NCBI GenBank assembly: GCA_034414775.1
Contig: DAOULX010000042.1
Span: 3,590-67,589, forward strand
DNA length: 64,000 nt
DNA from: Dehalococcoidales bacterium
GTDB taxonomy: Bacteria; Chloroflexota; Dehalococcoidia; Dehalococcoidales; RBG-16-60-22
Reading direction: 5' to 3'
Part shown: positions 10,432 to 53,589 of the stretch, one piece after another
How the letters are laid out: every line of letters begins with the position of its first letter
How positions within the stretch are numbered: the stretch's first letter is position 1
Position numbers and translations under genes: made by a program
Notes under the pieces: generated by a model
What the model was told of the DNA's origin: nothing
The model's input: the letters and a program-made list of their open reading frames with translations, nothing else
Databases searched by the model: none

Positions 10432-11142
10432 TTATACGATGGGACGATGGGGATTGAGGCAGCAGTCCCCGCAGCGGGGGATTTTGCGGCAGGTTTCTTT
10501 GCCCAGCCGAACGAGGAGGGCGTGGTACTCGTTGAAGAGTTGGGTATCGGCAGGAAGGTTTTCCACGAACAGGGCCTGATAGGCGGTATAACTATCCTGG
10601 GATGGGGCCAGCCCCAGCCTACTTAAAATCCGGCGGGTATAGGCATCGATAACGAACACCGGCCGGTTACCGGCATATAGAAGAATAGAATCAGCCGTCT
10701 CTTCGCCGATACCGTTAACGCCAAGCAACTCACGGCGTAGACCGTCCGTATCCCGGGAAAAGAGCCTGTCCAGATTGCCGGCGTATTTTTCGCTGAACCA
10801 TTTTACGAAGGCCTTCAGCCGCCGCGCCTTGATGTTATAGTAACCGCAGGGATGGATCAAGTCCGCCAGCTCCGGCTCGGATAGTTCCCGCAAGGCCGTT
10901 GCGGACAGCTTTCCGGCGGTACGGAGGTTGTCAATGGCCCTCTCGACATTGGTCCAGGCGGTGGATTGTGTCAGTATCGCCCCGACGATTACCTCGAAGG
11001 GCTCCCGGGCGGGCCACCAGTACTGGGGGCCGTACCGGTTCAGGAGTCTCCGGTAAGTGCCCAGCAACGCAACATCCCTCGCCTGATGATTCGCGAGGAT
11101 GTTGCAGTTTCCGTCCGGCGGACTGGGTACCGCTCGAGTCAT
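10432..11142 (-). CDS. Endonuclease III-like HhH-GPD DNA glycosylase family protein
   Basis: The HhH-GPD pattern (VNGIGEETADSILLYA) and a C-terminal Cys cluster (CRKIPRCGDCCL) are present. Confidence 0.75.
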   Translation of the reverse strand: MTRAVPSPPDGNCNILANHQARDVALLGTYRRLLNRYGPQYWWPAREPFEVIVGAILTQSTAWTNVERAIDNLRTAGKLSATALRELSEPELADLIHPCGYYNIKARRLKAFVKWFSEKYAGNLDRLFSRDTDGLRRELLGVNGIGEETADSILLYAGNRPVFVIDAYTRRILSRLGLAPSQDSYTAYQALFVENLPADTQLFNEYHALLVRLGKETCRKIPRCGDCCLNPHRPIV

Positions 11143-12392
11143 TTCACTTCCGCCAGCGGCGTTAACGTCAACAGTTTCCTAGCAATCCCCGGGTACTTGG
11201 CGATGAAGATGAGCTCGTCTTCAACGAGGGGTTTCTGCGACTCCACGTTAGCGTACCTGACCAGTTCGAGGATATCGTTGGCCTTATTCCTATCCGGGAA
11301 CTTGATAGGAACCGGAAGCTGGCTCATAACATGGCTGAACCCGGAGATGCCGCCGTATTCGCCGGTGCAGATCTCACGGCCGGACTCAACAAGCTCGGGC
11401 TCACCGCGGCCCAGCTCTTCGTAATGATAGAGCTCGTAGTTTTCCGGGTCTTTGAGGACACCATCGGCATGGATGCCGGACTCATGGGCGAAGGCGTTGG
11501 CTCCGACGCCCGGCTGATTAATAGGAATGGGGACGCCAAAAGCATAGCTGGTGAACCTGGTAATCTTGAAAGCCATATCCAGCTTGATTGAATTTCCCAG
11601 CTCATAGCGTTTGCAGGTAGCTTTCGATTTCCTGGCCGCCAGTATCACGGCGATGAGGTCGGCGTTGCCGGCCCGCTCGCCGATGCCATTGATAGTGGTA
11701 TTGATGTAGGCATCCTGGCCGCCGTCGATAGCGCCCATAGCTCCCGCGATGGAGTTAGCCACCGCCATACCCAAGTCGTTATGGCAGTGAAGCTCAACGG
11801 GCAGACCGATTTTCTCCGCCATCTTTCTCGCATTGTCGTAGATAGTGAAAGGGTTATCGTAACCGAGCGTATCGCAGTAACGGACCCTGTCAGCGCCATG
11901 TTCCTTCCCCGCTAGCCCGAACTCGATCAGGTAATCGACGTCGGTCCGGGAGGCATCCTCGGCATTGACACCGATGGACTCGGCCCCATGAGCGCGGGCG
12001 GCATCGACGGCTTCAGTCATATCCCGGATAATATCATGTTTGGATTTCTTGCCCAGGAACTTTCCGTTGATCATCTGGTCGGACGTAGAAATGGAAAGAT
12101 TGAGGTGGTTGATATTGGGCACATTGCGGAAGGTTAGCTCTACGTCGACGGGCATGGCCCTTATCCAACCACCGAGCCGCAGTGGTTTAATGACACCGAT
12201 CTCGGCCAGTTCCAGATTGGCCTGGAGATAGTTGATTTCGTGTCGGGTGGTCGGAAACCCGAACTCTGACTGGAAGACGCCCATATCATTGAGATATATA
12301 TTGATCATGGTCTTTTCCAGCTTGGACAGTCCGAGCCTGGCCGTCTGTACACCGTCCCGATTGGTTACATCTAGTAAATAAATCTTGGGCAT
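11139..12392 (-). CDS. Homocitrate / isopropylmalate / (Re)-citrate synthase family (HMGL-like) enzyme
   Basis: LDVTNRDGVQ..., HCHNDLGMAVANS, NGIGERAGNA are the DRE-TIM metallolyase motifs of the LeuA/NifV family. Substrate specificity cannot be assigned from sequence alone. Confidence 0.8.
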   Translation of the reverse strand: MPKIYLLDVTNRDGVQTARLGLSKLEKTMINIYLNDMGVFQSEFGFPTTRHEINYLQANLELAEIGVIKPLRLGGWIRAMPVDVELTFRNVPNINHLNLSISTSDQMINGKFLGKKSKHDIIRDMTEAVDAARAHGAESIGVNAEDASRTDVDYLIEFGLAGKEHGADRVRYCDTLGYDNPFTIYDNARKMAEKIGLPVELHCHNDLGMAVANSIAGAMGAIDGGQDAYINTTINGIGERAGNADLIAVILAARKSKATCKRYELGNSIKLDMAFKITRFTSYAFGVPIPINQPGVGANAFAHESGIHADGVLKDPENYELYHYEELGRGEPELVESGREICTGEYGGISGFSHVMSQLPVPIKFPDRNKANDILELVRYANVESQKPLVEDELIFIAKYPGIARKLLTLTPLAEVK

Positions 12393-12550
12393 TCACACCT
12401 CCACCTGCCGGCATCTAGTAGTGCCGACGCTATATTTTAAGATATATCGGCGCCAGCAAGCAAACATACCAGGCAGGTCTTGTATGGGATAATTCGCTGG
12501 TTTGACGTCCGAGGACTCAAATTTGACCGGGTCACCCGAATTCTGGTATC

Positions 12551-12805
12551 ATGCTCAAGGCCAGGTATTTTGGGTTCGGCATGAACAGGTGGGACTTGGC
12601 GGTCAGGCTGACAGGTGTTGGGTTCTATGTCGGGACCTGTATCGTGGGGGGGACGTTCGCCGGACTGTGGCTCGACGGAAAGCTGGATACCCGGCCGCTA
12701 TTCATGATAGGCGGGCTGCTGTTAGGGGTGGTAGTGGCTTTTTACGGTTTATATCGCATGCTCAAACCCCTCATGAATGACAAGCAAGACAAGGAGAACA
12801 GCTAG
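12551..12805 (+). CDS. atpZ: AtpZ/AtpI-like small membrane protein of the ATP synthase operon
   Basis: 84 aa with two TM segments (GVGFYVGTCIVGGTFAGLWLD, LFMIGGLLLGVVVAF). It lies immediately upstream of atpB. Confidence 0.7.
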   Translation: MLKARYFGFGMNRWDLAVRLTGVGFYVGTCIVGGTFAGLWLDGKLDTRPLFMIGGLLLGVVVAFYGLYRMLKPLMNDKQDKENS

Positions 12806-22895: not shown

Positions 22896-25800
22896 TTGAA
22901 TATGACAAACCCGGAGGTTGACAAAGATATGGCGTTAACCGGCAAGGTAATAATCGATACAGGGGAAATCGATGCGGTGATTCTTGATATGGATGGTGTC
23001 ATCACCCAGACCGCTGACATCCATGCCGCTGCCTGGAAAGAGCTTTTCGACGAGTACCTGAAAACCCGGGCGGACCGTTCCGGGGAGAAGTACCGGCCGT
23101 TCGAAATCGATCCCGATTATTTCCAGTACGTTGACGGGAAACCCCGTGATGACGGCGTGAAAAGCTTCCTGGAATCCCGCGGCATGTCTATCCCGCTGGG
23201 GGGAAAAGCTGATTCTGAAGACCAGGAGACTGTCCGGGGGTTGGGTAGCCGAAAAAACCGGTATTTTCTCGAGCAACTGAGGCAGGAGGGAGCCACTGCT
23301 TTCCAGTCTTCGGTGGATTTTGTAAAAGAGCTCAAAGCTCTCGGCATTTACGTGGCGGTAATATCGGCCAGCCGGAACGCCGAGGAGGTATTACGGTCTG
23401 CCGGGGTACTCGACCTGTTTGACGTCAAGGTTGACGGCGTTGACGCCGGTGAACTCAGGTTAAAGGGTAAGCCCAATCCGGCTATATTCCTGGAGGCCGC
23501 CAGGCGGCTGAATGTCCGGCCGGACCGGGCGGCCGTGGTCGAAGATGCCATAGCCGGTGTCCAGGCTGGCCGAAGGGGTAACTTCAAGCTTGTCATTGGA
23601 GTCGACCGTACCGGGCAGGAGGAAAACCTCCGGGAAAATGGCGCCGATGTAGTCGTGGCGGACCTGTCCTGGCTTGGTATCAAACAACCGACCCGCCCGA
23701 AGTCATTCGGCCGCCCGCTGAACAGCCTTCCATCTGCCCTGGAACGGAGAGAAGAAATTTTCGCCCGGCTGAGTGAAAAGAGTCCCGCAATTTTCCTTGA
23801 CTTCGATGGTACGCTGGCACCAAGAGTTAAAGCCCCGGCCGAGGTGGTTCTTTCCGGGAAGACCCGGCAGGTCATCAAACACTTGGGCAGACACTATTCG
23901 GTTGCCGTTGTCAGCGGACGTGATCTGGATGACATTCGTAAACTGGTCGATATCAATGACATCGCCTACGCGGGTGGTCATGGAATAGACATTTCCGGCC
24001 CGGGTAACGCCTTCCGGAGAGAGGAACGCGGTAAAGAGTTCCTGCCGGCACTCACCCGCGCCGAGAAAGAATTACGCGGGGCACTCAAACGTATCAAGGG
24101 GATAAAGATTGAACGTAAACACTTCAGCGTTTCCGTTGATTATTGCCGGGTCAATGAGGCTGACCTGGGTACATTCAAGGAGAGGCTTGACGGGGTGGCC
24201 TCAAATAATCCAAGGTTGAAAAAGACCGCCGGTGAAATGTTGTTTGAGCTGACGCCCAAAATCGATTGGAACAAGGGCAAGGCTGTCTTAGCCCTGATGG
24301 ACGTATTATATGCGGACAGCAGTAAGATTACGCCTCTTTATATTGGCGAGGATACCGCCGATGAAAAGGCTTTCCGCGCCATGGGGGAACGGGGTATCGG
24401 CATCGCCGTTGGTAAGGGGCGCCGCCGGACCCTGGCGCATTACCGGCTGCACGATCCGGATGAGGTCAGGGAGTTTCTGGCAGGACTGGGGGCGCTGGCG
24501 GAAAAGAAGGTCTCTCGAGGCATCTGGTCGCTTGTTTTCGATGGTTTCGTTCCCGAGGAAGAAGGGTTGAGAGAGGCCCTGTGCACGCTGGGTAACGGCT
24601 ATTTCGCCACCCGTGGCGCTGCTCCCGAGTCTAAGGCAGACGCGGTTCACTATCCAGGCACCTATGTCGCGGGATGCTTTAACCGGCTGACCAGCAAGAT
24701 AGCTGGCAAGAAAATCGAGAATGAAAGCATGGTGAACCTCCCGAACTGGCTGCCGCTGTCGCTGCGTTTCAACGACGGCGCCTGGTTCGATGTTGAGAAG
24801 GTCCAGGTGCTGGAATACGAGCAGGAGCTCGACCTGAGACGGGGCGTCCTGAACCGGCGGATACGCTTTGCCGATGAGCAAGGCCGCCGGACACGCCTGC
24901 TGCAACGCCGTTTTGTCAGCATGGCCGATCCTCATCTGGCAGGGATAGAGACCACCATCGTCGCGGAAAACTGGTCGGGGCAGTTATCGGTCAGATCGGC
25001 GCTTGACGGGACGGTAACCAACGACGGCGTGGCCCGCTACCGGCAACTGGATTGTCAGCATCTAGTACCGCTGGAATGCTCCCGCATCAATAACGAGACG
25101 ATATTACTGCAAGTGGAGACATATCATTCGCACATCCGGATTGCCGAAGCGGCACGAACGAGATTGTTCCTTGACGCCACCCAGCTCACTCTGGAACCCG
25201 CGACTATAGAAGACAAGGGCTTTATCGCCCAGGAGTTCAGCATCCCTGTAAAGACGGGGGGGCAGATAAGCGTTGAAAAGATAATATCTTTATATACGTC
25301 TCGGGATTCGGCTATTTCGGAGAGTGGTGAAGCCGCCCGGGAATCCGTGGCACGTGCCCCGGGCTTTGAGGGGCTTCTGGAACGCCACGTGATGAGCTGG
25401 GCTAACCTCTGGAACCGGAGCCGTATCGCCATCGAAAACGGCGAGCGTGTGGCCATGATCCTGCACCTGCATATCTTTCACTTATTGCAGACGGTTTCGC
25501 CCAATAGCATCGGTCTTGACGTGGGTGTACCGCCGAGGGGCCTCCACGGCGAGGCTTATCGCGGCCATATCTTCTGGGATGAGCTGTTTATATTTCCATT
25601 TTTAAACCTGAGCATTCCGGATATCACCCGCTCGCTGCTGTTGTACCGTTACCGGCGCCTGCCGGAAGCACGCTGGGCGGCCGCCCGGGCCGGGTTCCGG
25701 GGGGCGTTGTACCCGTGGCAGAGCGGCAGCGACGGACGGGAGGAGAGCCAGACACTCCATCTGAATCCCCGCTCGGGGCGATGGCTACCCGACAACTCAC

Positions 25801-26942
25801 ACCTGCAAAGGCATATCAATATCGCTATCGCCTATAATATCTGGCTTTACTACCAGGTGACCGGCGATGTCGATTTTCTCTCTTACTATGGAGTGGAGAT
25901 GCTCGTCGAAATCGGGCGGTTCTTCGCCAGCATCGCCACATACAATCGCACGCTGGACCGTTACGAGATCCGCCGGGTCATGGGTCCTGACGAATACCAC
26001 GATTCTTATCCGAACGCCAGCGAACCCGGCATCGACAATAACGCCTATACCAATGTAATGACGGTCTGGCTGCTCTGCCGGATCCTGGAAGCACTTGATA
26101 TAATCCCCCCGGATAGGAAGGAGTCACTCCAGGATAAACTGGATCTTAGACGCCAGGAGCTGGAGCATTGGGATGACATCAGCCGTAAAATGCGGATCGT
26201 CTTCCATGACGGCGGTATCATAAGCCAGTTTGAGGGCTATGATGCTCTTGAGGAGTTCGATTGGAAAGGCTACGAAAAGAAGTACGGTAAAATCGAGCGC
26301 CTCGACCGTATCCTCGAGGCGGAAGACGATACTCCCAACCGGTACAAAGTCTCTAAGCAGGCCGATGTGCTAATGTTGTTTTACCTGCTTTCATCCGATG
26401 AACTGCGGGAGCTGTTCGGCCGGCTTAACTATCCCTTTGAATATGAGACCATTCCCAGGAACATCGATTATTACCTTCATCGTACTTCCCATGGCTCTAC
26501 TTTGAGCCGATTGGTGCATGCCTGGGTACTGGCCCGCTCCAAACGTGAACTTTCCTGGCACCTTTTCAAGGAGGCCCTGGAGAGCGATGTTTCCGATATT
26601 CAGGGCGGTACGACGATGGAGGGTATTCATCTCGGTGCCATGGCGGGGACGGTAGACCTGGTGCAGCGCTGTTTCACCGGGATCGAAACCCGCCGGGACA
26701 AGCTGCAGTTAAACCCGGTGCTACCAAACGAGCTCAAAGACATCCAGTTCGATATTGTGTTCCGTCGGCAGCATCTCAACCTTCAATTTACCCATAACCG
26801 GCTGATTATCAAGGGACAGCCGGGTGAAGTGTCACCGGTCAGGATTGGCTTCGGAAACCTGGAAACCGATCTCAAACCTGGTGAGACCATGGAATTCAAG
26901 CTTCCGGATCCCTTGGCGAACCCTGATGATCTTACCAGGTAG
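22896..26942 (+). CDS. Tri-domain fusion: beta-phosphoglucomutase-like HAD + trehalose-phosphatase-like HAD + GH65 glycoside phosphorylase
   Basis: Domain 1 has DAVILDMDGVIT...KGKPNP...VEDAIAGVQAG. Domain 2 has AIFLDFDGTLAP...VSGRD...GEDTADE. The C-terminal roughly 780 aa have a GH65 pattern (HIFWDELFIFPF, GPDEYH, QADVLML). The architecture is that of mycobacterial OtsB1-like proteins. Confidence 0.85.
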   Translation: MNMTNPEVDKDMALTGKVIIDTGEIDAVILDMDGVITQTADIHAAAWKELFDEYLKTRADRSGEKYRPFEIDPDYFQYVDGKPRDDGVKSFLESRGMSIPLGGKADSEDQETVRGLGSRKNRYFLEQLRQEGATAFQSSVDFVKELKALGIYVAVISASRNAEEVLRSAGVLDLFDVKVDGVDAGELRLKGKPNPAIFLEAARRLNVRPDRAAVVEDAIAGVQAGRRGNFKLVIGVDRTGQEENLRENGADVVVADLSWLGIKQPTRPKSFGRPLNSLPSALERREEIFARLSEKSPAIFLDFDGTLAPRVKAPAEVVLSGKTRQVIKHLGRHYSVAVVSGRDLDDIRKLVDINDIAYAGGHGIDISGPGNAFRREERGKEFLPALTRAEKELRGALKRIKGIKIERKHFSVSVDYCRVNEADLGTFKERLDGVASNNPRLKKTAGEMLFELTPKIDWNKGKAVLALMDVLYADSSKITPLYIGEDTADEKAFRAMGERGIGIAVGKGRRRTLAHYRLHDPDEVREFLAGLGALAEKKVSRGIWSLVFDGFVPEEEGLREALCTLGNGYFATRGAAPESKADAVHYPGTYVAGCFNRLTSKIAGKKIENESMVNLPNWLPLSLRFNDGAWFDVEKVQVLEYEQELDLRRGVLNRRIRFADEQGRRTRLLQRRFVSMADPHLAGIETTIVAENWSGQLSVRSALDGTVTNDGVARYRQLDCQHLVPLECSRINNETILLQVETYHSHIRIAEAARTRLFLDATQLTLEPATIEDKGFIAQEFSIPVKTGGQISVEKIISLYTSRDSAISESGEAARESVARAPGFEGLLERHVMSWANLWNRSRIAIENGERVAMILHLHIFHLLQTVSPNSIGLDVGVPPRGLHGEAYRGHIFWDELFIFPFLNLSIPDITRSLLLYRYRRLPEARWAAARAGFRGALYPWQSGSDGREESQTLHLNPRSGRWLPDNSHLQRHINIAIAYNIWLYYQVTGDVDFLSYYGVEMLVEIGRFFASIATYNRTLDRYEIRRVMGPDEYHDSYPNASEPGIDNNAYTNVMTVWLLCRILEALDIIPPDRKESLQDKLDLRRQELEHWDDISRKMRIVFHDGGIISQFEGYDALEEFDWKGYEKKYGKIERLDRILEAEDDTPNRYKVSKQADVLMLFYLLSSDELRELFGRLNYPFEYETIPRNIDYYLHRTSHGSTLSRLVHAWVLARSKRELSWHLFKEALESDVSDIQGGTTMEGIHLGAMAGTVDLVQRCFTGIETRRDKLQLNPVLPNELKDIQFDIVFRRQHLNLQFTHNRLIIKGQPGEVSPVRIGFGNLETDLKPGETMEFKLPDPLANPDDLTR

Positions 26943-38793: not shown

Positions 38794-39969
38794 TTACAAT
38801 AGTGAGGGGATGTCTTTGGAGACGTCATCCAGCGCCTTGAGCTTGTCCTCCGTCTCCTCCTGGCGTTTCTTGAACTCGGGGATAAGGTCGGTCGAGCGGA
38901 GATAGTAGTCGCGTACTTTCTCAACGTCGCTGAGCTCGGAGAGAAGTACGGTAACATCTACCAGGCCCCTTTCCCTGGGGTAGTCACCGTTGCGGATGAT
39001 GGCCTCCGGCGCGATGTCCCTCATATAATCGCCGATCTCTTTGACCATGTCCATGTTCATTTCCTTGGCCGGGCCGGACACCAGGTATAGCGCCCGGCGC
39101 GAATCGGCGGGATTGCATTTCAGGGAAAGCTCGCTGATGGCCTCATCCATAGCCTGGATGCCCTTCTGGATCTCGGTGCCCTTCTTGCGGAAATCGCTCT
39201 TCCACTCGGTCGGCCACTTGAACAGGGGAGCCTGGGTCTTACCGTAGCCGATGACTGTCCAGCCGACCACGGTCTGGATAATGTCCCCGGCGTCGAGCAG
39301 CTTGGCACCGATGAACTTGGACTTCTTTTCCTCGCCGGCGCAGAGCATATTATAGAACGGCTCGGCAATCATGCCATTTATTTTGGATAGATTGGTCTGG
39401 ATGGAAGAGTCCTTTCTTACGTAGCGCTGGTTATCAACGAGGAAGACGGCATCGGCGACCGAGTAGCAGGACTTGAGGCAGGTGGCCACGTTGAAGACGG
39501 TCCTTTCCTCGGTAGTCTCTTCGTGCTCGAAAGGCAAGACAATCAGGTTCCAAATCGGTTTATCGATGTAGCGTTCCTTCAGGTGCTGCGAGACGATGGA
39601 GATAGCGCCGGATCCGGTGCCTCCTGCCGAACCGGCGATAAGGAGGAAGGCGTCCGTTTCGAAGAAGTGCTTGGTTGTCCTGATCGCGTCTACGATTTTA
39701 TCGGAATCTTCCTTGGCTATCTCGGCACCGAGCTCGTTGATTTTCCCGACGCCGTGGCCGCCGGTCTTGCGGCTACCGATAAGGATCCGATGGCGGTGGT
39801 CGTTACCTATGCTGGACAGGCCGCTCAGATCAGCGGCATCAGTATTGACAGCGAAACAGCCTGTGACGATGGTCATACGACGGCGGCTACGGGCTTTGGA
39901 ATTAAGCCGAGCAAATTCATCGGCAATTCTGCCACCGCACTGCCCCAAGCCAACAACGACTAATTTCAT
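38794..39969 (-). CDS. Tubulin/FtsZ-superfamily GTPase, CetZ-like (paralog A)
   Basis: 391 aa. The T1 loop is MKLVVVGLGQCGGRIADEF, the T4 tubulin signature is SAGGTGSGA, and a T7-like loop is KLLDAGDII. An FtsZ-type C-terminal domain pattern is present (RALYLVSGPAKEMNMDMVKEIG...VDVTVLLSEL). The tail ends KDIPSLL. The RBS is AGGGGG. Confidence 0.85.
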   Translation of the reverse strand: MKLVVVGLGQCGGRIADEFARLNSKARSRRRMTIVTGCFAVNTDAADLSGLSSIGNDHRHRILIGSRKTGGHGVGKINELGAEIAKEDSDKIVDAIRTTKHFFETDAFLLIAGSAGGTGSGAISIVSQHLKERYIDKPIWNLIVLPFEHEETTEERTVFNVATCLKSCYSVADAVFLVDNQRYVRKDSSIQTNLSKINGMIAEPFYNMLCAGEEKKSKFIGAKLLDAGDIIQTVVGWTVIGYGKTQAPLFKWPTEWKSDFRKKGTEIQKGIQAMDEAISELSLKCNPADSRRALYLVSGPAKEMNMDMVKEIGDYMRDIAPEAIIRNGDYPRERGLVDVTVLLSELSDVEKVRDYYLRSTDLIPEFKKRQEETEDKLKALDDVSKDIPSLL

Positions 39970-39997
39970 TGCAGCCCCCTAAGTTTGAGTTATGTCT

Positions 39998-40027
39998 ATT
40001 TTAAGCATAATGTCAGCGCAATGTCAA
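39998..40027 (-). promoter_or_regulatory. Sigma70-type promoter of CetZ-like gene A
   Basis: The minus strand reads TTGACA (40027-40022), an 18-nt spacer, then TAAAAT (40003-39998), about 28 nt upstream of the ATG. Confidence 0.5.
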
Positions 40028-40121
40028 TTAGCGTAAAGTAATTTAATCATATATATTTTCGTACTAATTGTATATATGACCAATTTCCTATCTTAGGTTT
40101 GTTTGGCTTGAAAAGTAGTTA

Positions 40122-40150
40122 TTGAAAAAGTGCTACCCGAATAATATAAT
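40122..40150 (+). promoter_or_regulatory. Sigma70-type promoter of the 818-aa repeat protein gene
   Basis: TTGAAA-N17-TATAAT is followed by the RBS GGGGGGTGG and the ATG at 40183. It is divergent from the CetZ-like A promoter within an AT-rich 213-bp spacer. Confidence 0.5.
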
Positions 40151-40182
40151 AAAGATTGCCATAAAAATTTGGGGGGTGGCGA

Positions 40183-42639
40183 ATGTCTCCGAATCTGAGG
40201 GAAGAAGTCGAGGGGAATATCACAGATTTCGAACGGGCGGTAGCTAAGGCTGAGGAACTCAGCCGGGCTGCCCGAGAGGCTGCCGGTAAATCGACGAAGA
40301 GCGCCATGGAAGCCGCTCAGCGGGCGGAGGAGGTGGGGCTGAAGGCCAAGAAGGCGGCGGAAGATGCCGCCAGGGCGGCCCAGGATGCGATAGCCCGGGC
40401 GGAAAAAGTCAGCCGGGAGGCCAAAGAGGCCGCTGACGCAGCGATGAAAGCCGCTAATGAAGCCATCGCCAAGTCGGAGGAGATCGCCAAGCGGCCGCAG
40501 GAAACGGCCCAATCCATGGCCAAAGCCTTCGAGGAAGCTATCGCACGGGCGGAGAAGATTGGTGGGGAAGCGATGCGGGCGGCGGAATCGGCATTGATGC
40601 TTTCCCAGGAGAGGCTCCAGCGCATCGATGAAATCAGCCGCGAAGCCAAGAAAATAGCTGATACAGCCGAAGAAACAACCCAGGAGGCTATTTCCACAGC
40701 AGAATCAGCCGTTAGCGCCGCCAGAGAGGCCACCGAAGAGTCAATCAGAGCAACCAAGGAAGCTACCAAACAGGCGGAAAAAATGGCCCGAGAGGCCAGG
40801 GAGGCCGCCGAGGCAACCACCAAGGTGTCCAAAGACGTGGTAAGCCGGACGGAGAAGACCAGTCTGTCCACCCGGGAAGCCGCCGAAGTAGCCGCCCGGG
40901 CCGCTGAGGAAGTAGCCACGCGGGCGGAGACTATCAGCAAGGTAGCCCGTGAGGTCGCCGAGGCGTCACAGCGTTCATCCCAGGAAACGATGAACCGTGT
41001 TGAAATGGTGAGTCGGGAGGCCAAACTGGCCAACGACGCTTCTCAGAAGACCGCCCAGGAAGCACTCAAGCGGGCGGAAGACGTTACCAGGGAGACTAGA
41101 GCCGCTACGGATATGGCGGCCAAGATTGCCAAGGAGGCTTCGGCAGCTTCTGTGAAGGCCTCACAGGAAGCGATGGCCAAGGCTGAACTTCTGAGCCAGG
41201 AGGCCGGTACCAAAGCTGCTGCAGCGGCTACCGAATTACAGGAGGCGGTCGCCAGGGCGGAGCAGGTATCACGGGATACCATTGATGCTACCGAAACGGC
41301 CGTGAGGAATGTGAAGGAAGCCCAAGCCCTTACGGAGAAACAGAGTCAGACCGCCAGGGAGGAGGCCGAGGCGGCGTCGCTGTCCGCCCGGGAAGCCGCC
41401 GAAATGGCCGCGCAGTCTGCCCGGGAAACCGCCGAGGCAGCCGCACAATCAGCCAAGGAGGCCGCCCGGGCAGCCGCCGAGAATGCCCGGCAGGCCGCCG
41501 AAGCTGCGGCACAGTCGGCGCGAGAGGCCGCCGATGCGTCAGCCCAACAGGCCAGCGAGGATGTGGAAGCCGCTTCACGTAGCGCCTGGGAAGCGACCGA
41601 GGCGGCAGCTGTAGCCGTGCGGGGTGCAGTCGATGCTGCTGTACAGAAGATACTAGAGGCTTCTCAGAAGACGACTGAAGAATCCGCCGCGGCTGTAACC
41701 AGAGTCGAAGAAGTTAGCGGTGAAGCCCGGCAGAAGTCGGAGGCCGCTTCTGAAGAGTTCCGCCAGGCGGTGGCGCGGATGGAAGAAATAAATAATGCAG
41801 CCGGGGTGTCCGTCGAGGAATCGGCCAGGAGCGCCCGTGAAGCGGTCGAAAAGATCGAGAAAGAGACCCAGGAAGCGGTGGCCAGGGCCGAGGAGATTGG
41901 CCAGTCCGCCAAACAGACAGCCGAGGAATCGACAAGAGTGATGCGGGAAGCCATCGACGCCGCCATTGCGACAGTGCAGGAGACGTCCCAGGTATCCCAA
42001 CAGGAAATCCAGGAGGCGATCGCCAGAGCTGAGGAAATCAGCCGGGAGACAAAGGAAGCGGCCGAGGCAGCGGTCCAGGCCGCCCGGGAAGTGACGGACG
42101 GGCTGGTCAAAGCCGCCACGGAATCCGCGGAGAGGACGGTCAAGGCGGTCAAGGAAGCCACCGAAGCAGCCGCCAAGGTTGCCCGAGAAGCTGCCGGGGT
42201 TTCCATTTCCGCTTTCAGGGAGGCGATAAGCCGGGCGGAGACAAGCGGGCAGCTGGCCAGGCAGACAGCGGACGAGTCCTTCCGCCGCTACGAAGAGTCC
42301 CTGGGTAAGGTCCGGCAAGACGAAACCGGAGAAGGCGAAAGTCAGGAAGAAACCCCGGTCAGCGCCGAAGATGCTGTTGAAGATGAGATGGCCGCTACGC
42401 TGGAGACAGATACCGAGTTTGAGACCGAGATGGGGAGCGCTCAGGATTTGGAGGAAGAAGAGCTAGGCTCGGACATAAAGCTGGAAAAGGAAGACGTTAA
42501 AAACAACGACAAGAACGGTTCAAGGGGAGAACCCAAGGGGAAAATGGAAGCTCGTCTTGAATCCCTGGCCCGGATGTATGAGGCCAAGAGAAACCAGCAA
42601 TCCGGCAAGGGAGATGAGAATAACGATAACGGCGAATGA
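40183..42639 (+). CDS. 818-aa Ala/Glu-rich all-helical repeat protein (25-residue and 11-residue repeats) with an acidic disordered tail
   Basis: A long ORF with RBS and promoter. It has no TM segment and no signal peptide. About 20 copies of a motif resembling A-[IV]-A-R-A-E-x-[IV]-S-R-E-A-K-x-A-A are present. The conserved Glu falls at residues 24, 49, 74, 99, 124, (D149), 174, 199, 224, 249, 274 and 299. A pure 11-mer block covers about residues 392-480. The C-terminal roughly 130 aa are Glu/Asp-rich. Confidence 0.85.
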   Translation: MSPNLREEVEGNITDFERAVAKAEELSRAAREAAGKSTKSAMEAAQRAEEVGLKAKKAAEDAARAAQDAIARAEKVSREAKEAADAAMKAANEAIAKSEEIAKRPQETAQSMAKAFEEAIARAEKIGGEAMRAAESALMLSQERLQRIDEISREAKKIADTAEETTQEAISTAESAVSAAREATEESIRATKEATKQAEKMAREAREAAEATTKVSKDVVSRTEKTSLSTREAAEVAARAAEEVATRAETISKVAREVAEASQRSSQETMNRVEMVSREAKLANDASQKTAQEALKRAEDVTRETRAATDMAAKIAKEASAASVKASQEAMAKAELLSQEAGTKAAAAATELQEAVARAEQVSRDTIDATETAVRNVKEAQALTEKQSQTAREEAEAASLSAREAAEMAAQSARETAEAAAQSAKEAARAAAENARQAAEAAAQSAREAADASAQQASEDVEAASRSAWEATEAAAVAVRGAVDAAVQKILEASQKTTEESAAAVTRVEEVSGEARQKSEAASEEFRQAVARMEEINNAAGVSVEESARSAREAVEKIEKETQEAVARAEEIGQSAKQTAEESTRVMREAIDAAIATVQETSQVSQQEIQEAIARAEEISRETKEAAEAAVQAAREVTDGLVKAATESAERTVKAVKEATEAAAKVAREAAGVSISAFREAISRAETSGQLARQTADESFRRYEESLGKVRQDETGEGESQEETPVSAEDAVEDEMAATLETDTEFETEMGSAQDLEEEELGSDIKLEKEDVKNNDKNGSRGEPKGKMEARLESLARMYEAKRNQQSGKGDENNDNGE

Positions 42640-42690
42640 GATTGCGGCTCGGGGGCCGGAAAACGCCGGTTAAAGGCTATCAGAAACAAT

Positions 42691-42719
42691 TTGACTTTTA
42701 AATATTAGGGCAATATACT
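42691..42719 (+). promoter_or_regulatory. Sigma70-type promoter of the 162-aa repeat protein gene
   Basis: TTGACT-N17-TATACT lies about 90 nt upstream of the GTG start at 42811. Confidence 0.5.
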
Positions 42720-42810
42720 GGGCACAAAGTAGCAACCGGACTACTGGAAACGCCCCTTTATTGTTGCCGGTGATTAATGGAGAAATCAGTTTCATATAAG
42801 GAGGTGCCAG

Positions 42811-43299
42811 GTGGCCAACCCGAAGGAACGAACCAAGAAGACTACAGCAGAACTTGAACCCGAACCATCTGTAGAAGTGGCACCGGAGGAACAGCCCAAG
42901 AGTCCTCTTGATGAGGTCATGAGCCAGGCCGAAAAGGCCTATGCCGCTTATATGGACGCCGAGCGGCAGGTGGCCCGGGCCTATCATGAGAACGAGGTGC
43001 AGGTGGCCAAGGCTTACAAGCGGGCGGAGGAGCAGGCCGCCCGGGCTTATGAAGCGGCCGTTGCGAAGGCATTGAAAGACCGTGACGAGGCGATATCGCG
43101 GGCGGCTAAAAGCCGTGAGGACATGATGAGGCGGGCTGAAGAGGCTTACCAGGCGGCCGTCGATTCAGCCTGCGCCAATAGTGAAACGGCCATTGCCGAG
43201 GCTGTTAAAGTTCGTGATGAAAGCGTTGAGAAAGCCTGGCAGGTACGCGACCAGACCATTGAACAGGCCTGGCAGATTTACTCCAAGATAGCCAGGTAG
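42811..43299 (+). CDS. 162-aa hendecad-repeat helical protein
   Basis: The start is GTG, preceded by AAGGAGG. After a Pro/Glu-rich N-terminus, an aromatic residue recurs every 11th residue (Y47, Y58, Y69, Y80, Y113, then W143 and W154). Confidence 0.75.
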   Translation: MANPKERTKKTTAELEPEPSVEVAPEEQPKSPLDEVMSQAEKAYAAYMDAERQVARAYHENEVQVAKAYKRAEEQAARAYEAAVAKALKDRDEAISRAAKSREDMMRRAEEAYQAAVDSACANSETAIAEAVKVRDESVEKAWQVRDQTIEQAWQIYSKIAR

Positions 43300-43415: not shown

Positions 43416-44591
43416 TTAAAGCAGCGAGGGTATATCCTTGATGGTAATATCAATCCCTCGCTGCGTACTTATTGCACCCTCCTGGCGTTTCTTCAATTCG
43501 CTCATGAGATTGATAGCCTTGGTAAAGTAGTTCCTAACCTTCTCCACATCGCTGAGTTCGGATAGTATCAGGGTTATATCCACAGCGCCTTTTTCACGGG
43601 GGTAATCGCCGCTCCTGATGATAGCTTCTGGGGACATATTCTTGATGTGGGCTCCCATTTCCTTGATAAGGTCCACGTTGATTTCCTTGGCCGGGGCGGA
43701 AACCAGGTAGAGAGCCCTCTTCGAGTCCAGCGGATTACACCTGATGGACAGGCCGCTGATGGCGGAATCGAGGGCCTGGATGCCCTTCTGTGTTTCCGTA
43801 GCTTTGTTCCTGAAATGGCGGTTGCGGCCGAAGAGGTTTTTAAACGCGGAAGTGTGGGACCGGCCATATCCCAGAGTTGTCCAGCCTACCAGTGTCTGGA
43901 TGATATCCCCCGCATCTAGTATCTTGGCGCCGATGTGGCGGGACTTTATCTCCTCGCCGGCGCAGAGCAGATCGTAGAAGGGTTGGACGATGGTAGTGTT
44001 AATGCGGTGGAGGTTGCCCATGATATGCCGGTCTTTCATGACATAGCGCTGGTTATCGATGAGGAAGACGGCATCGGCAACCAGGTAGCTGGACTTGAGG
44101 CAGGTAGCCACGTTGTAAACCGTCCTTTCCTCGGTGGCCTCTTCATGTTCAAAGGGCAGGATGATGAGGTCGTAAACAGGCTTATCGACATAGCGTTCTT
44201 TTATCTGTTGGGTCATAACGGAGATGGCGCCGGAACCGGTGCCGCCGGCTGCCCCGGCAATAAGCAGGAAGGCATCGGTTTCCTGAAAGCCCTTCGAGCT
44301 TCTGATGGTCTCGATGATTTTATCGGCGTCTTCCCGGGCGACTTCGGCGCCGAGCTCGTTGATTTTACCGACGCCATGGCCCTGGGTCTTCTTATTACCG
44401 ATGAGGATACGGGTGTCATAGCGAGGTTTTATGGTCTTCAGGCCATGGAGGTCGGCTAAATCGGTATTGACGGCGAAAGCGCCGGTGATTATATTCAGCC
44501 CGCGGGTACTACGTGCCCGACTATTAAGCCGGGCGAACTCGTCAGCAATCCTGCCACCGCATTGCCCCAGGCCGATGACGATTAGTTTCAT
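43416..44591 (-). CDS. Tubulin/FtsZ-superfamily GTPase, CetZ-like (paralog B)
   Basis: 391 aa, collinear with paralog A without gaps and roughly two-thirds identical by eye. The same motifs are present (GLGQCGGRIADEF, AAGGTGSGA, KILDAGDII), and it ends in the identical KDIPSLL. Confidence 0.85.
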   Translation of the reverse strand: MKLIVIGLGQCGGRIADEFARLNSRARSTRGLNIITGAFAVNTDLADLHGLKTIKPRYDTRILIGNKKTQGHGVGKINELGAEVAREDADKIIETIRSSKGFQETDAFLLIAGAAGGTGSGAISVMTQQIKERYVDKPVYDLIILPFEHEEATEERTVYNVATCLKSSYLVADAVFLIDNQRYVMKDRHIMGNLHRINTTIVQPFYDLLCAGEEIKSRHIGAKILDAGDIIQTLVGWTTLGYGRSHTSAFKNLFGRNRHFRNKATETQKGIQALDSAISGLSIRCNPLDSKRALYLVSAPAKEINVDLIKEMGAHIKNMSPEAIIRSGDYPREKGAVDITLILSELSDVEKVRNYFTKAINLMSELKKRQEGAISTQRGIDITIKDIPSLL

Positions 44592-50073: not shown

Positions 50074-51201
50074 TTAAGTGAAGTGACGTTGCTTGGCCGA
50101 CTCGCTCGGTGTTTCACTGGATGCCACGTGCCGTCGGTGACTGAAAAGGGGACGGCGCAGGAAGGAAGGCATATCCAGCTCGTCCTCTGTCTTCATGCCT
50201 TTCAGGATCTTGGTGAGCTCGTCATCCTCGGTCTCCTGGCCCATGCCCAGCTTGGCATGGAATCCGGTGGTGATGAGGGTAATCCTCACTTCGTTTTCCA
50301 TGGACGGGTCATTGGCGACGCCGAAGATGATGTTGGCATCCGGATCGACAGCCTGTTTGATGACATCGGCCGCCTGGTTGACCTCGAACAGAGAGAGATT
50401 GCTGCCGCCGACGACGTTAAACAGGACAGCCTTGGATCCTTCGATGGACACATCGAGGAGCGGACTGGCCAAGGCTTCCTTGGCAGCATCGGTGGCCCGG
50501 TTCTGTCCGGATCCCTTACCGATTGACATCCAGGCCGGGCCGGCATCCTTCATGATGGCCTTGACATCGGCGAAGTCGAGGTTGATCATACCGGGGGTGG
50601 TAATCACCTCGGCGATGGCCTGGACGCCGTGTCGCAGGACATCATCGGCGAGCTTAAAGGCGCTGTCGACACCGGTCTTGTGGTCACAGAGAGTCAGCAG
50701 GCGGTCGTTGGGGATGATAATCAGGGTATCGACCTTATCGATCAGGGTAGTGATGCCTTCTTCAGCCGTCTCCATGCGGTGAGCACCCTCGAAAGTGAAG
50801 GGTTTGGTAACTACGGCGATGGTCAGGGCACCGCTGTGCTTGGAAATCTCCGCTAATATCGGGATAGCACCGGTACCGGTACCGCCGCCCATACCCGCTG
50901 TGATAAACACCATGTCCGCACCGGAGAGGATCTCCTTCAGCTCATCGCGGTTTTCCTCGGCGGCCTTTTGCCCGATGCGATGGTCGCCGCCGGCGCCGAG
51001 TCCCTTGGTCAGCTTGGGGCCAAGCTGGACGCAAACCGGGGCTTCACAGATCGCCATAGCCTGGGCGTCCGTGTTCATGGCGATGAATTCTACCCCCTGG
51101 ATGTTTTCCCTGACCATACGTGTTACGGCATTGCTGCCACCACCACCCAGACCGACGACTTTTATCCTGGCTGGGTTGGTTACAAAACTTGTTCTAGCCA
51201 T
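50074..51201 (-). CDS. ftsZ: Cell division protein FtsZ (canonical)
   Basis: 375 aa with [18 protein letters not shown] and NLDFADV motifs and a C-terminal peptide LDMPSFLRR. Confidence 0.97.
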
Positions 51202-51245
51202 CTCCTCCTCCTTTCACTGATACCTTTTTATTTATTATTCTGTTT

Positions 51246-52448
51246 TCATACGAAGAACTTTTTAAGCTGGGCCGCGATGCGGTTGAATAGCCCCGGTTTC
51301 CAGTTCCTCCTACTCTGGTATTTGCTCCCCCAGAGCAGCAGACCGACACTGGTGGCGTAGGCCGGGTCACGGAGTGTGTCGGCGATACCATGGAGGTTAG
51401 CAGGGGCGCCAACCCTCACCGGGAGCTTGAGGATATCGCGCCCGAGGGCAGCCATGCCGGATAGATTGGCACTGCCACCGGTAAGCACCAGACCGGCGGG
51501 TACCAGTGCTTCGTAGTCCGAATTCGGCATTTCCAGGAGGATGAGCTTCAAGATTTCCTCGACCCTGGCCCGGATGATGTCGCAGAGGTCCTGATAGGAT
51601 ACGCCGTGGCCGTCTTTGGATATAGCCGGAGCCGTATCACTTTTGCTTTCATAAACAGGCATAACACTGCCGTACTTTTTCTTCATCTCTTCGGCAATCT
51701 CGAACGGCAGCCCCAGGCCGATAGCGACATCGCGGGTGAGCTGGTATCCGGCTACCGGTAGAATGGAGGTATGCCAGATGCTGCCTTCCCTGAAGACAGC
51801 AACGTCCGTGGTGCCACCACCGACATCAGCCATGATGACACCGACCTGCTTTTCGTCATCGGTGAGGATGGCCTCGCTGCTGGCCAGGGGCTCCAGGACA
51901 AGGTCTTCGATGTCTATCCCGATGCTCCGGATGCATTTGACCAGGTTCTGGATCGAGGTCACCGCCGCTGTGATAATATGGGTTTCCACGTCGAGTCGGA
52001 AGCCGTGCATGCCGACGGGATTTTTAACGCCCGTCTGACCGTCGACGGCATAGGCGCGGGGGATAACGTGAAGCAGTCTTCTATCAGTGGCGGTCTTCAC
52101 GCTCTGGGCGGAGGCCAGGACCCGTTTCAAGTCGTCCGGGCGTACGACGCGGTCGTTACGAGTGATAGCGACAACGCCGTGGTTGTTGATCGACGTAACG
52201 TGGCGGCCGGTAACGCCGACGTAGGCAGATTCCACTTTATAATTGCTGGCCTGCTCCGCCTTTTTAACCGAGTCCCTGATGGATTCCCTCGCTTCGTTGA
52301 TATTGACCACGAGCCCTTTGTGCAGCCCCCGGGAAGGAGAAACGCCCACGCCCAGGATGCGAGGGCCGCCGTCACTGACATCCGAAAGTATCGTACAAAT
52401 CTTGGTCGTGCCAACATCAACTGAAGCTACGACATTCTGTTTTTTCAT
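51246..52448 (-). CDS. ftsA: Cell division protein FtsA
   Basis: 400 aa with actin-fold motifs (VDVGTTK, DVGGGTTD). It lies immediately upstream of ftsZ and has a strong RBS, AAGGAGGG. Confidence 0.95.
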   Translation of the reverse strand: MKKQNVVASVDVGTTKICTILSDVSDGGPRILGVGVSPSRGLHKGLVVNINEARESIRDSVKKAEQASNYKVESAYVGVTGRHVTSINNHGVVAITRNDRVVRPDDLKRVLASAQSVKTATDRRLLHVIPRAYAVDGQTGVKNPVGMHGFRLDVETHIITAAVTSIQNLVKCIRSIGIDIEDLVLEPLASSEAILTDDEKQVGVIMADVGGGTTDVAVFREGSIWHTSILPVAGYQLTRDVAIGLGLPFEIAEEMKKKYGSVMPVYESKSDTAPAISKDGHGVSYQDLCDIIRARVEEILKLILLEMPNSDYEALVPAGLVLTGGSANLSGMAALGRDILKLPVRVGAPANLHGIADTLRDPAYATSVGLLLWGSKYQSRRNWKPGLFNRIAAQLKKFFV

Positions 52449-52536
52449 CTGCCCTCCTTAAATATCCGTGGTCTTTCGTACCATATTTCTTTCGGTTCTC
52501 ACATACAAGAACCTCCTTTATTGGTTTGCTTATGGT

Positions 52537-53589
52537 TCAAGCGGCCAATAATACCGTCTTGATCTTTTGTAACAGGGCTGGCCGACGCCATCCCCGATAC
52601 TCGGCGATGGTGAGGACCGGATGGTCTCGGGCGGCGTCGGGCGAAGAGTTGTTATTGATCACACGCTGCGCGGCCCTCATTTTGGCGCTGCGGCTGCGCA
52701 CGTTGAGCCCGATTTCGGCTCGGGTGGGGGTAATGACTTTCTTGTTGACCAGTTCCAGGCGTGGGGTATGGCCGCAGATACAGGCCGGCGTCCCCGGGGG
52801 GCAAATACAACCGCGGGACTCTGTCTGCATGAACTGCTTGACGATTCTGTCTTCGAGAGAGTGGTAGCTGATGACTACCAGCCGGCCAGCGTGGCCGAGG
52901 AGATCAACGGCCTGTCTCAGAGCGGCTTCCAGGTGTTCCAGTTCGTGGTTGACGGCGATGCGGAGCGCCTGGAAGGTTTTCGTGGCCGGGTGAATACGGC
53001 CGCTCCGTCCGATGGCCGTTTCAACCAGTGATGCCAGCTGGCGAGTTGTGGAAACGGGACGATTCTCCACGATAATCCGGGCAATTCTGCGACTGCGCTT
53101 TTCCTCGCCGTAGGTCTTGATGATATGGGCCAGCCGGGCTTCCGGTGTCGTGTTGACGATATCGGCGGCGGTGGTCTTTTGGGTGGGATTAAATCTCATG
53201 TCCAACGGGGCATCGGTCTGGAAGCTGAAACCGCGCCGGCTTCCGTTGAGCTGAAGGGAGGACAGTCCCAGATCGAAAAGGATGCCGTGTACGGGGAAAA
53301 AGTCATATTTAATACAAATGGATTGCAGATTGGCGAAATTATCATTGACCAGGAGGGCGGACTCCTTATAGCGCTGGAGTCTTTTCTTCGCCGCCTCGAT
53401 AGCGGCGGGGTCGGCGTCAATACCCAGAAGCTGACCCCCCGGAGAGCTGTGGTCGAGGATAGCCGCGGCGTGCCCGCCGGCACCGACGGTGCAATCGATA
53501 TAGCGGCCGCCAGGCTGTACAGCGAGGGCGCGAAGCGCCTCAGAGAGGAGGACCGGGGTGTGGGTGTGGGTTGATCTCTGGTTCACCAT
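52537..53589 (-). CDS. rsmH: 16S rRNA (cytosine1402-N4)-methyltransferase RsmH
   Basis: [15 protein letters not shown] and FDLGLSS motifs are present. The protein is about 40 aa longer at the C-terminus than typical RsmH. Confidence 0.92.

Follow-up and report, generated by a model that had tools for sequence, protein, structure and literature searches.

We analyzed a 64,000-nucleotide stretch of a Dehalococcoidales bacterium (hereafter, the window; GenBank assembly GCA_034414775.1, contig DAOULX010000042.1, positions 3,590 to 67,589 of the forward strand), focusing on a gene for an 818-residue repetitive protein, here called the rod, which is flanked by two tubulin homologs of the CetZ family. 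The rod is an acidic, all-alpha, non-membrane protein that conserves the register of its repeats and is co-inherited with CetZ-like tubulins. It is probably (at a probability of roughly 0.6) a subunit of a conserved and so far undescribed cytoskeletal module of the Dehalococcoidia, which it would form with a small helical protein, orf162, and one or two CetZ GTPases. The rod family lacks any annotation and seems to be confined to Dehalococcoidia/Chloroflexota.

The linkage of these genes was examined from both sides. The cassette CetZ2/orf162/rod/CetZ1 was kept in all 11 Dehalococcoidales genome contigs of sufficient length and, because the members of this clade also retain the flanking housekeeping genes, distant loci were examined as well. 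When anchored on the rod, the analysis placed distant rods (28–34% identity) beside CetZ-like genes (55–61%) in four unrelated contexts (L057, L064, L065, and L066), with the gene order rod-like, orf162-like, and CetZ-like, or rod followed by CetZ; a fifth contig (L063) presented the window's own synteny. The CetZ-anchored set comprised 80 of more than 558 metagenomic CetZ-like loci, the CetZ-like proteins of the set grouping into 35 clusters when clustered at 80% identity. A gene resembling orf162 or the rod was found in 64 of 64 loci with at least 700 nucleotides downstream, and a rod-like gene in 38 of 38 with at least 3 kb downstream, while in the eight loci with neither partner the contigs all stop within about 300 nucleotides of the CetZ gene. 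The window's flanking genes were missing from 18 of the 33 loci of at least 9 kb. The initial annotation had tied the rod to the neighboring tubulin homologs by its location, and this link is strongly supported, as a rod homolog lies beside every sufficiently long CetZ-like locus examined; the gene can be considered essentially always adjacent to CetZ-like genes, a pattern strongly supported by the genomic sequences. In L057, in which the rod/CetZ pair lacks orf162, a 588-residue SMC_N/AAA_23 ATPase (10876-12642) is encoded beside the pair, divergently from the CetZ-like gene.

Judged from their sequences, both flanking proteins are true CetZ-family tubulins of the archaeal type, encoded in a bacterium. 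Paralog 1 matched Tubulin at 1.9e-31 (110 bits) and CetZ_C at 8.7e-16 (58 bits), and paralog 2 at 7.3e-32 (112 bits) and 1.3e-17 (64 bits), respectively, all above the Pfam cut-offs of 33 bits for Tubulin and 21.6 bits for CetZ_C. The top Protein Data Bank (PDB) match of paralog 1 was CetZ1 of Haloferax volcanii (4B46, E = 3.6e-43), with FtsZ appearing only at 4.5e-10 or above. The AGGTGSG GTP signature is invariant in the CetZ-like proteins, and the Asp of LDAGDII aligns with E218 of H. volcanii CetZ1, which we take to be the catalytic acidic residue of the T7 loop; this acidic position is therefore kept. Other genes of the window are bacterial (DnaX, RecR, RecO, type I GAPDH, and F-type ATP synthase), and the nearest genomic loci all belong to metagenome-assembled genomes of Dehalococcoidales or Dehalococcoidia. 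The two paralogs are 66% identical to each other and differ in isoelectric point (pI), 6.4 for CetZ1 versus 9.05 for CetZ2, the former being the exception among CetZ-like proteins, whose pI mostly lies between 8.2 and 9.05. Two CetZ genes, in tandem or on either side of the rod, were also observed in 20 of the 80 metagenomic loci, and a heteropolymer of the two paralogs is possible.

Canonical FtsZ and FtsA are encoded separately, 6 kb away, and the CetZ-like proteins therefore represent an additional tubulin system. They end in (K/E)DIPSLL, with D-I-P-S-L-L as the exact C-terminus in 63 of 102 metagenomic CetZ-like proteins, and this tail closely resembles the C-terminal peptide D-M-P-S-F-L (LDMPSFLRR) of the FtsZ in the window. 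This likeness suggests that an adaptor such as FtsA may be shared with FtsZ, and membrane anchoring may therefore proceed via FtsA rather than via the rod; the C-terminus of the window's FtsA looks amphipathic by eye. In the same region (50074-53589, minus strand), the genes for RsmH, FtsA, and FtsZ follow one another directly, and mur, ftsW, ftsI, and ftsQ genes are absent from between them. This dcw cluster is devoid of genes for peptidoglycan synthesis, a local observation consistent with a wall-less organism.

The sequence of the rod is organized by two periodicities. The initial annotation had described a conserved acidic residue recurring in twelve consecutive 25-residue units, later occurrences offset by 25 plus multiples of 11, and an 11-mer array in the middle of the protein. 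Residue indexing found an acidic residue at 21 of 21 listed positions (Asp at 149), embedded in the motif A-[IV]-A-[RK]-A-E: these are residues 24, 49, and onward to 299 in steps of 25, followed by 335, 360, 385, 509, 534, 559, 570, 617, and 686. The spacings past residue 299 (36, 25, 25, 124, 25, 25, 11, 47, and 69) all equal 25 + 11n or 11. In a BLOSUM-scored autocorrelation, with z computed against shuffles, lag 25 reached z = 15.5 over residues 1–700 and lags 25, 50, and 75 reached z ≈ 14 over residues 1–310, while in the central block (residues 386–490) lags 11, 22, 33, and 44 stood at z ≈ 9 (9.2 for lag 11). The hydrophobicity Fourier spectrum peaked at 3.56 (=25/7) over residues 1–310 and at 3.68 (=11/3) over residues 386–490. 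Both the 25- and the 11-residue peaks are thus strong; the twelve units are borne out by the motif positions and lag 25, and the 11-mer array by lag 11 and the 3.68 period. The 25-residue register also runs on past residue 318 to about residue 390 (nucleotide 41352) with one hendecad inserted, and it dominates the protein outside the hendecads, which make up only ~100 of the 818 residues. At the DNA level, Tandem Repeats Finder detected a repeat only in the central block (33-nucleotide period, 41347-41538, 5.8 copies, 67% matches), so that the 75-nucleotide units are ancient ones, maintained in the protein sequence.

The consensus of the 25-residue unit, AVSRAEEISKEAREAAEAAxKAAQE, places apolar residues at positions 1, 2, 5, 8, 9, 12, 15, 16, 19, 22, and 23, which fall into a single stripe when plotted on a helical wheel with 25 residues in 7 turns. 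Most of the stripe is Ala, and only positions 2 and 8 are bulky. Glu and Lys or Arg are linked in helix-stabilising chains of i to i+4 pairs, and on the 25/7 wheel the Arg/Lys and Glu/Asp positions are intermixed, without class-A charge segregation.

This register is conserved over considerable divergence. In an alignment of the window rod with 11 syntenic orthologs, which are just 43–57% identical, residues 1–385 are strictly colinear: 11 of the 12 sequences are free of indels and the remaining one carries a single deletion of exactly 11 residues. The length of the central block differs from that of the window rod by -22, -22, -22, -88, -55, -44, -33, and -55 residues in eight orthologs, all multiples of 11, and by +73 (66+7) and -84 (77+7) in two others; in one further ortholog a masked run makes the block not interpretable. 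Residues 509–686 are again colinear, with two anchor segments (108 and 69 residues long) that are invariant in 12 of 12 aligned sequences. As these indels amount to 11n or 7+11n, the helical register is preserved. Among 49 complete metagenomic rod-like open reading frames (ORFs) of 163–794 residues, the best lag was 25 in 44, 50 in four, and 47 in one. A stuttered coiled coil under 7/11 arithmetic is expected to have a hydrophobic period between 3.5 and 3.67, repeat lengths that add up from 7s and 11s, and register-keeping indels; the rod shows periods of 3.56 and 3.68, spacings of 25, 36, 47, 69, and 11, and indels of this kind.

By composition (24% Ala, 17% Glu), the rod is strongly acidic, with a pI of 4.74 and a net charge of -54. 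In a single-sequence AlphaFold2 (AF2) prediction, it was all-helical at low confidence (predicted local distance difference test, pLDDT, of 61), with helices at residues 3-96, 105-225, 228-371, 412-540, 545-600, and 606-713, the long ones spanning 94–144 residues, and a short one at 785-806. If fully extended, residues 1–700 would measure about 105 nm, and the description of the protein as a very long rod agrees with its composition, with the 3.56–3.68 periodicity, and with this low-confidence model. A fold search with the model against the PDB returned generic helical bundles only (template-modelling score of at most 0.21); it was uninformative and was discarded. Besides a conserved N-terminal motif, the rod holds a highly conserved segment, ESAERTVKAVKEATEASARVAREAAGVSISAF, in its C-terminal part. 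The last ~130 residues had been taken for an acidic low-complexity tail, which holds for the linker (net charge -19 over residues 701–782) and for the short terminal tail; the conserved helix at residues 785–806, lying between them, had been overlooked. In the ortholog alignment this helix reads IEARLESLARMYEAKK, with the core K-M-E-A-R-L-E-S-L-A-R-M-Y-E-A-K, and it defines the family: across 22 family members, R, L, L, and M of RLExLAxMY are invariant and Y is kept in at least 90% of the rows, and the motif RLxxLxxM[YF] recurs in 40 of the 49 complete metagenomic rods.

The 11-residue block raised the question of relatedness to known hendecad proteins. The initial annotation had named a stress-protective, late embryogenesis abundant (LEA)-like role as its main alternative. 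Under such a reading the rod would act as a molecular shield, and the neighboring tubulin genes would carry no structural meaning. Hydrophilic repeats rich in Ala, Glu, and Lys with an 11-mer block are what such a protein would show, and hypothetical genes DET0586-0588 of Dehalococcoides mccartyi 195, of unverified homology to the rod, respond to solvent toxicity (PMC4340931, PMC5102406). In a Pfam scan, LEA_4, apolipoprotein A1/A4/E, and perilipin gave no match to the rod even at E ≤ 10, the only hits being sub-threshold ones to BORCS6 and Phasin_2 (E = 0.8 for the latter), and no recognisable LEA-type protein stood among the examined matches of an exhaustive homology search, which were rod-family fragments and unrelated repeat proteins. 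Membership in the LEA, apolipoprotein, and phasin families was rejected on profiles. The homologs lie in tubulin contexts and the 11-residue periodicity is confined to residues ~386-490, while an exact 25-residue register over deep divergence and the near-absolute CetZ linkage would be unexpected for a shield protein; the LEA-like proposal is not supported, and we consider it highly improbable.

A related proposal casts the rod as a membrane coupler, whose amphipathic 11- and 25-residue helices would rest on the surface of the membrane, in the manner of apolipoproteins, perilipins, or PspA, and tether CetZ filaments to it. Amphipathic helices of this surface-lying kind typically show an 11/3 periodicity, and a distant rod relative matched ApoLp-III below threshold (19.8 bits versus a cut-off of 36.3), which may be read together with the sub-threshold Phasin_2 match of the rod. 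Against these stand the charge of -54, a narrow Ala face with two bulky residues per 25, and the absence of class-A segregation and of a transmembrane segment, the highest 19-residue hydropathy being 0.97 versus 2.66 for a membrane-protein control; the CetZ-like proteins, moreover, own an FtsZ-type C-terminal peptide that suggests anchoring by FtsA. A membrane-coupler role therefore looks unlikely, and we give it little weight.

The third gene of the module, orf162, is conserved and preceded by a strong ribosome-binding site, and it had escaped the initial annotation as a module member. Its product starts with 31 disordered residues followed by one ~130-residue helix of 11-residue repeats (A-x-x-A-Y/W), along which Tyr and Trp are regularly spaced; AF2 modeled a single helix at residues 32-161 with high confidence (pLDDT 86), the autocorrelation peaked at lag 11, and the hydrophobic period was 3.65. 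Orthologs are 58–69% and distant homologs 35–39% identical. The protein falls in no Pfam family, DUF6658 coming closest at a sub-threshold score, and has zero PDB sequence matches. An orf162-like gene occurs in 25 of the 38 long metagenomic CetZ-like loci (at least 3 kb downstream). Rods with an orf162 neighbor have a stronger hendecad block (median 1.53 versus 0.69, p = 3e-7, phylogeny ignored) and carry the C-terminal motif in 32 of 32 cases versus 8 of 15 without such a neighbor (phylogeny likewise ignored), which suggests that orf162 may pair with the hendecad block or the C-terminal helix of the rod.

Homologs of the rod were hard to recover. A word-indexed search with the full rod returned only a histidine kinase, low-complexity words having saturated the candidates, and one with the C-terminal alignment returned fragments only. 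An exhaustive phmmer search of 1.84 billion representatives gave 57 matches, mostly fragments, with several distant members bearing the C-terminal signature; full-length rods are poorly represented in protein collections, and in the PDB the rod sequence matched only designed helical proteins, and these weakly. This type of repeat is found outside the family too. P0001, an 876-residue histidine kinase on a JGI contig with response-regulator, PAS, and HisKA domains, carries a rod-type 25-residue repeat (SQEAIARAEEEARLAREEAEAxKTx; spacings 25×6, 18, 25×2) between PAS and HisKA, and, judging by this arrangement, the 25-residue repeat type is used elsewhere as a signalling stalk. The PAS-HisKA stalk position forms a parallel dimeric coiled coil and, because the kinase stalk with a like repeat is a parallel dimer, the coiled coil of the rod is probably parallel too. 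In P0141 (L061) and P0149 (L062), rod-like repeats are fused to a conserved C-terminal globular domain of unassigned family (LFEGTVLIIAP...VTL), which replaces the RLExLAxMY helix. P0133 (L060) apparently joins an N-terminal motif of the orf162 type, AYQAYREAERK, to 25-mers like those of the rod, with a response regulator encoded downstream; a CetZ gene is absent from this 2-kb contig, and contigs L059-L062 are all short and offer little context.

Taken together, these features point to a mechanism in which the rod would form a weakly supercoiled, probably parallel coiled coil of about 100 nm if fully extended, whose supercoil sense would vary with the local repeat: 25/7 = 3.57 would give a long left-handed pitch, 11/3 a slightly right-handed one, and 36/10 = 3.6 a straight course. 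Such a rod would bind and organise (bundle, space, or stabilise) polymers of the basic CetZ-like proteins; an electrostatic contact between rod and polymer is plausible since the rod has a pI of 4.7 versus 8.2–9.05 for most CetZ-like proteins. The tethered C-terminal helix could serve as a docking peptide, orf162 could pair with the hendecad block, and the three components would constitute a shape-related cytoskeleton apart from the FtsZ/FtsA divisome in a probably wall-less bacterium. The scaffold or bundler mechanism is what we infer from these sequence features and gene contexts. A more elaborate version, in which rod, orf162, and CetZ co-assemble as a composite membrane skeleton, with the rod running along or cross-linking CetZ protofilaments, orf162 forming a hetero-coiled coil on the hendecads, and the DIPSLL tail borrowing FtsA, so as to produce the disc shape of wall-less Dehalococcoidia, is a speculative and rather doubtful elaboration.

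The same features could be read in two other ways. The rod might be an autonomous intermediate filament (IF)-like protein, as are crescentin, FilP, and Scy, self-assembling into filaments or a lattice of its own and serving the same shape pathway without binding CetZ polymers directly. Long coiled-coil rods with mixed heptads and hendecads fit such a role, the N-terminal motif and C-terminal helix could give head-to-tail assembly, gene linkage requires a shared function only and not contact, and two rod-like genes (L058 and L060) lie away from CetZ. However, the near-absolute CetZ adjacency over 35 clusters is tighter than usual for pathway partners, and an Ala-dominated core with few bulky residues, at a charge of -54, argues against strong self-association without a basic partner. 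We hold an independent filament to be unlikely, if still a reading to be reckoned with. A stathmin-like negative regulator or sequestering factor, lying along CetZ subunits or short curved oligomers, would likewise be a periodic, long, acidic helix strictly co-encoded with mostly basic CetZ-like proteins, and its 37 Å unit, which falls short of the subunit repeat, might fit along the inside of an oligomer that curves. Yet a rod of 345–818 residues goes far beyond what capping a few subunits needs, and both the tethered helix and the partnership with orf162 speak for an assembly more than for an inhibitor; sequestration appears improbable.

Returning to the cytoskeletal module, several published observations are relevant to it. 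CetZ-like proteins in Dehalococcoidia were mentioned in passing by Santana-Molina et al. (2023), with no partner mentioned, and genes for coiled-coil proteins are repeatedly found next to tubulin-like genes of archaea (PMC9871819 for both). In D. mccartyi BTF08, the "tubulin/GTPase" btf_0551 and the nearby hypothetical btf_0548 were abundant in the disc-shaped cells of pure cultures only, and not in the barrel-shaped cells of co-cultures (PMC8163811). Strain 195 encodes FtsZ/FtsA as DET0343/0342 and two extra "FtsZ" proteins, DET0589 and DET0636; next to DET0589 lie the hypothetical genes DET0586-0588, which follow solvent stress in their response (PMC5102406, PMC4340931). Both btf_0548 and DET0586-0588 occupy the same position as the module, a link that is positional only, as their homology to the rod or orf162 could not be verified. 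No description of the rod, orf162, or the module was found in the literature searched. We know of no described partner protein for a CetZ tubulin, and the literature searched yielded none either.

Several points weigh against the proposed module. The rod-like genes on the short contigs L058 and L060 have no CetZ within 1-2 kb, and the occurrence of the 25-residue repeat in an unrelated histidine kinase indicates that the repeat alone is not specific for tubulin binding. The full-length AF2 model of the rod is of low confidence and its fold search was uninformative; the oligomeric state of the rod and its physical contact with CetZ are putative. The correlation between orf162 and the hendecad block is uncorrected for phylogeny, and the solvent response of DET0586-0588 would fit a stress role too, if these are homologs, which is unverified. 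Furthermore, a 25-residue helix measures about 37.5 Å (25 × 1.5 Å), and protofilaments of the tubulin family in general repeat their subunits every ~40-44 Å; since these lengths do not match 1:1, the idea of a simple ruler with one repeat per subunit was set aside.

The coordinates of the module, of the parts of the rod, and of the division genes are collected in Table 1. The rod ORF is preceded by the ribosome-binding site GGGGGTGG. The promoter-like sites of the divergent intergenic region, at 40027-39998 (minus strand) for CetZ1 and 40122-40150 (plus strand) for the rod gene, each agree with the sigma-70 consensus at 11 of 12 positions and represent consensus matches only. Antisense ORFs lie on the minus strand over the rod gene and downstream of it, at 40317-41033 (238 residues), 41653-42318 (221 residues), and 42670-42987 (105 residues, orf105); they are probable shadow ORFs of a GC-rich Ala/Glu coding frame, the conserved frame being that of the plus strand. 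The rod gene was truncated by the contig end in 5 of 17 genome contigs (L004, L005, L007, L012, and L014) and broken into ORFs of 480 and 172 residues in L063. Assemblies and gene calls thus seem to fail at the repeats, a possible reason for the family having gone unnoticed.

Table 1. Features of the rod gene, its protein, and the associated genes (positions within the window).
Feature	Coordinates	Strand	Remarks
CetZ-like paralog 1 (CetZ1)	38794..39969	-	391 aa, ends KDIPSLL; divergent from rod gene; orthologs 89-95% identical
Divergent intergenic region	39970..40182	.	AT-rich; promoter-like sites for both CetZ1 and rod gene
Rod protein gene	40183..42639	+	818 aa; ORF confirmed real; syntenic orthologs 43-57% identical
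Twelve exactly phased 25-residue units	40237..41136	+	residues 19-318; motif indexing and autocorrelation
Central hendecad block	41347..41652	+	residues ~389-490; lag 11; length differs among orthologs
C-terminal rod	41653..42282	+	residues 491-700; motif spacings 25, 25, 11, 47, 69
Variable acidic linker, probably disordered	42283..42534	+	residues ~701-784; low pLDDT, mostly coil in AF2
Conserved tethered amphipathic helix	42535..42600	+	residues 785-806, MEARLESLARMYEAKR; short acidic tail after
orf162, third module gene	42811..43299	+	~160 aa; GTG start, ribosome-binding site AAGGAGG; between rod gene and CetZ2
CetZ-like paralog 2 (CetZ2)	43416..44591	-	391 aa, pI 9.05, ends KDIPSLL; converges on orf162; orthologs 77-83% identical
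FtsZ	50074-51201	-	canonical, 6 kb off
FtsA	51246-52448	-	canonical, paired with FtsZ

Two further genes of the window present unusual architectures. Ribosomal protein L19 (56399-57268, plus strand) bears a C-terminal extension of ~175 residues with acidic Glu/Pro/Ala/Val repeats, and a 1348-residue protein (22896-26942, plus strand) is a fusion of HAD hydrolase, trehalose-phosphatase, and glycoside hydrolase family 65 (phosphorylase-type) domains.

For the maintenance of shape in the wall-less, disc-shaped Dehalococcoidia, which are important dechlorinators, the module offers a concrete three-gene candidate with near-absolute co-occurrence, whose small soluble proteins suit co-polymerisation and imaging. 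If the composite skeleton were true, the rod would be the first tropomyosin-like or microtubule-associated-protein-like lattice partner of a prokaryotic tubulin homolog. Independently of that, the rod provides a clean natural example for the study of non-heptad coiled coils, with its 25-residue register kept and its indels quantised by 11, and the FtsZ-like tail on CetZ suggests cross-talk between two tubulin systems within one bacterium.

The rod and its neighbors can be set beside several known systems. Hendecad proteins such as LEA group 3, apolipoproteins, and perilipins share its 11-residue periodicity, which the rod exhibits in its central block only, and its hydrophilic, Ala-rich character; unlike these proteins, the rod has a dominant period of 25, is strongly acidic, lacks class-A segregation, and resides in a cytoskeletal gene context. 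The FtsZ accessory proteins ZapA, ZapB, EzrA, and SepF, some of which are coiled coils, resemble it as bundlers or anchors of a tubulin-family polymer, but their partner is FtsZ, whereas the rod module accompanies CetZ, and no Pfam or NCBIfam match to any of them was found for the rod or orf162. Crescentin, FilP, and Scy are bacterial cytoskeletal rods with non-heptad 7/11 periodicity and a role in shape, which for the rod would be an inferred one. No relevant Pfam, NCBIfam, or PDB match to these three was found; the rod shows lags of 25, 50, and 75 rather than 51, the 51-residue hendecad-containing repeats being those of Scy and FilP, and none of the three proteins is known for a strict linkage to tubulin-family genes. 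Like the archaeal CetZ proteins (CetZ1 and CetZ2 of H. volcanii), the proteins flanking the rod combine Tubulin and CetZ_C domains with the GTP signature and the acidic T7 residue; unlike them, they occur in a bacterium, are near-neutral to basic, end in a DIPSLL tail resembling the FtsZ C-terminal peptide, and have a rod partner gene at every sufficiently long locus examined. Finally, tropomyosin is likewise a long acidic helical rod with an Ala-rich core, an exact period, and conserved ends that possibly overlap head to tail, encoded or acting alongside a cytoskeletal polymer. The two have no sequence relation and differ in period (~39.5 for tropomyosin versus 25, or 7+7+11, for the rod) and in partner (actin versus, putatively, CetZ). 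The rod also differs from tropomyosin in its disordered linker, to which a helix is tethered, and in being accompanied by a small helical protein.

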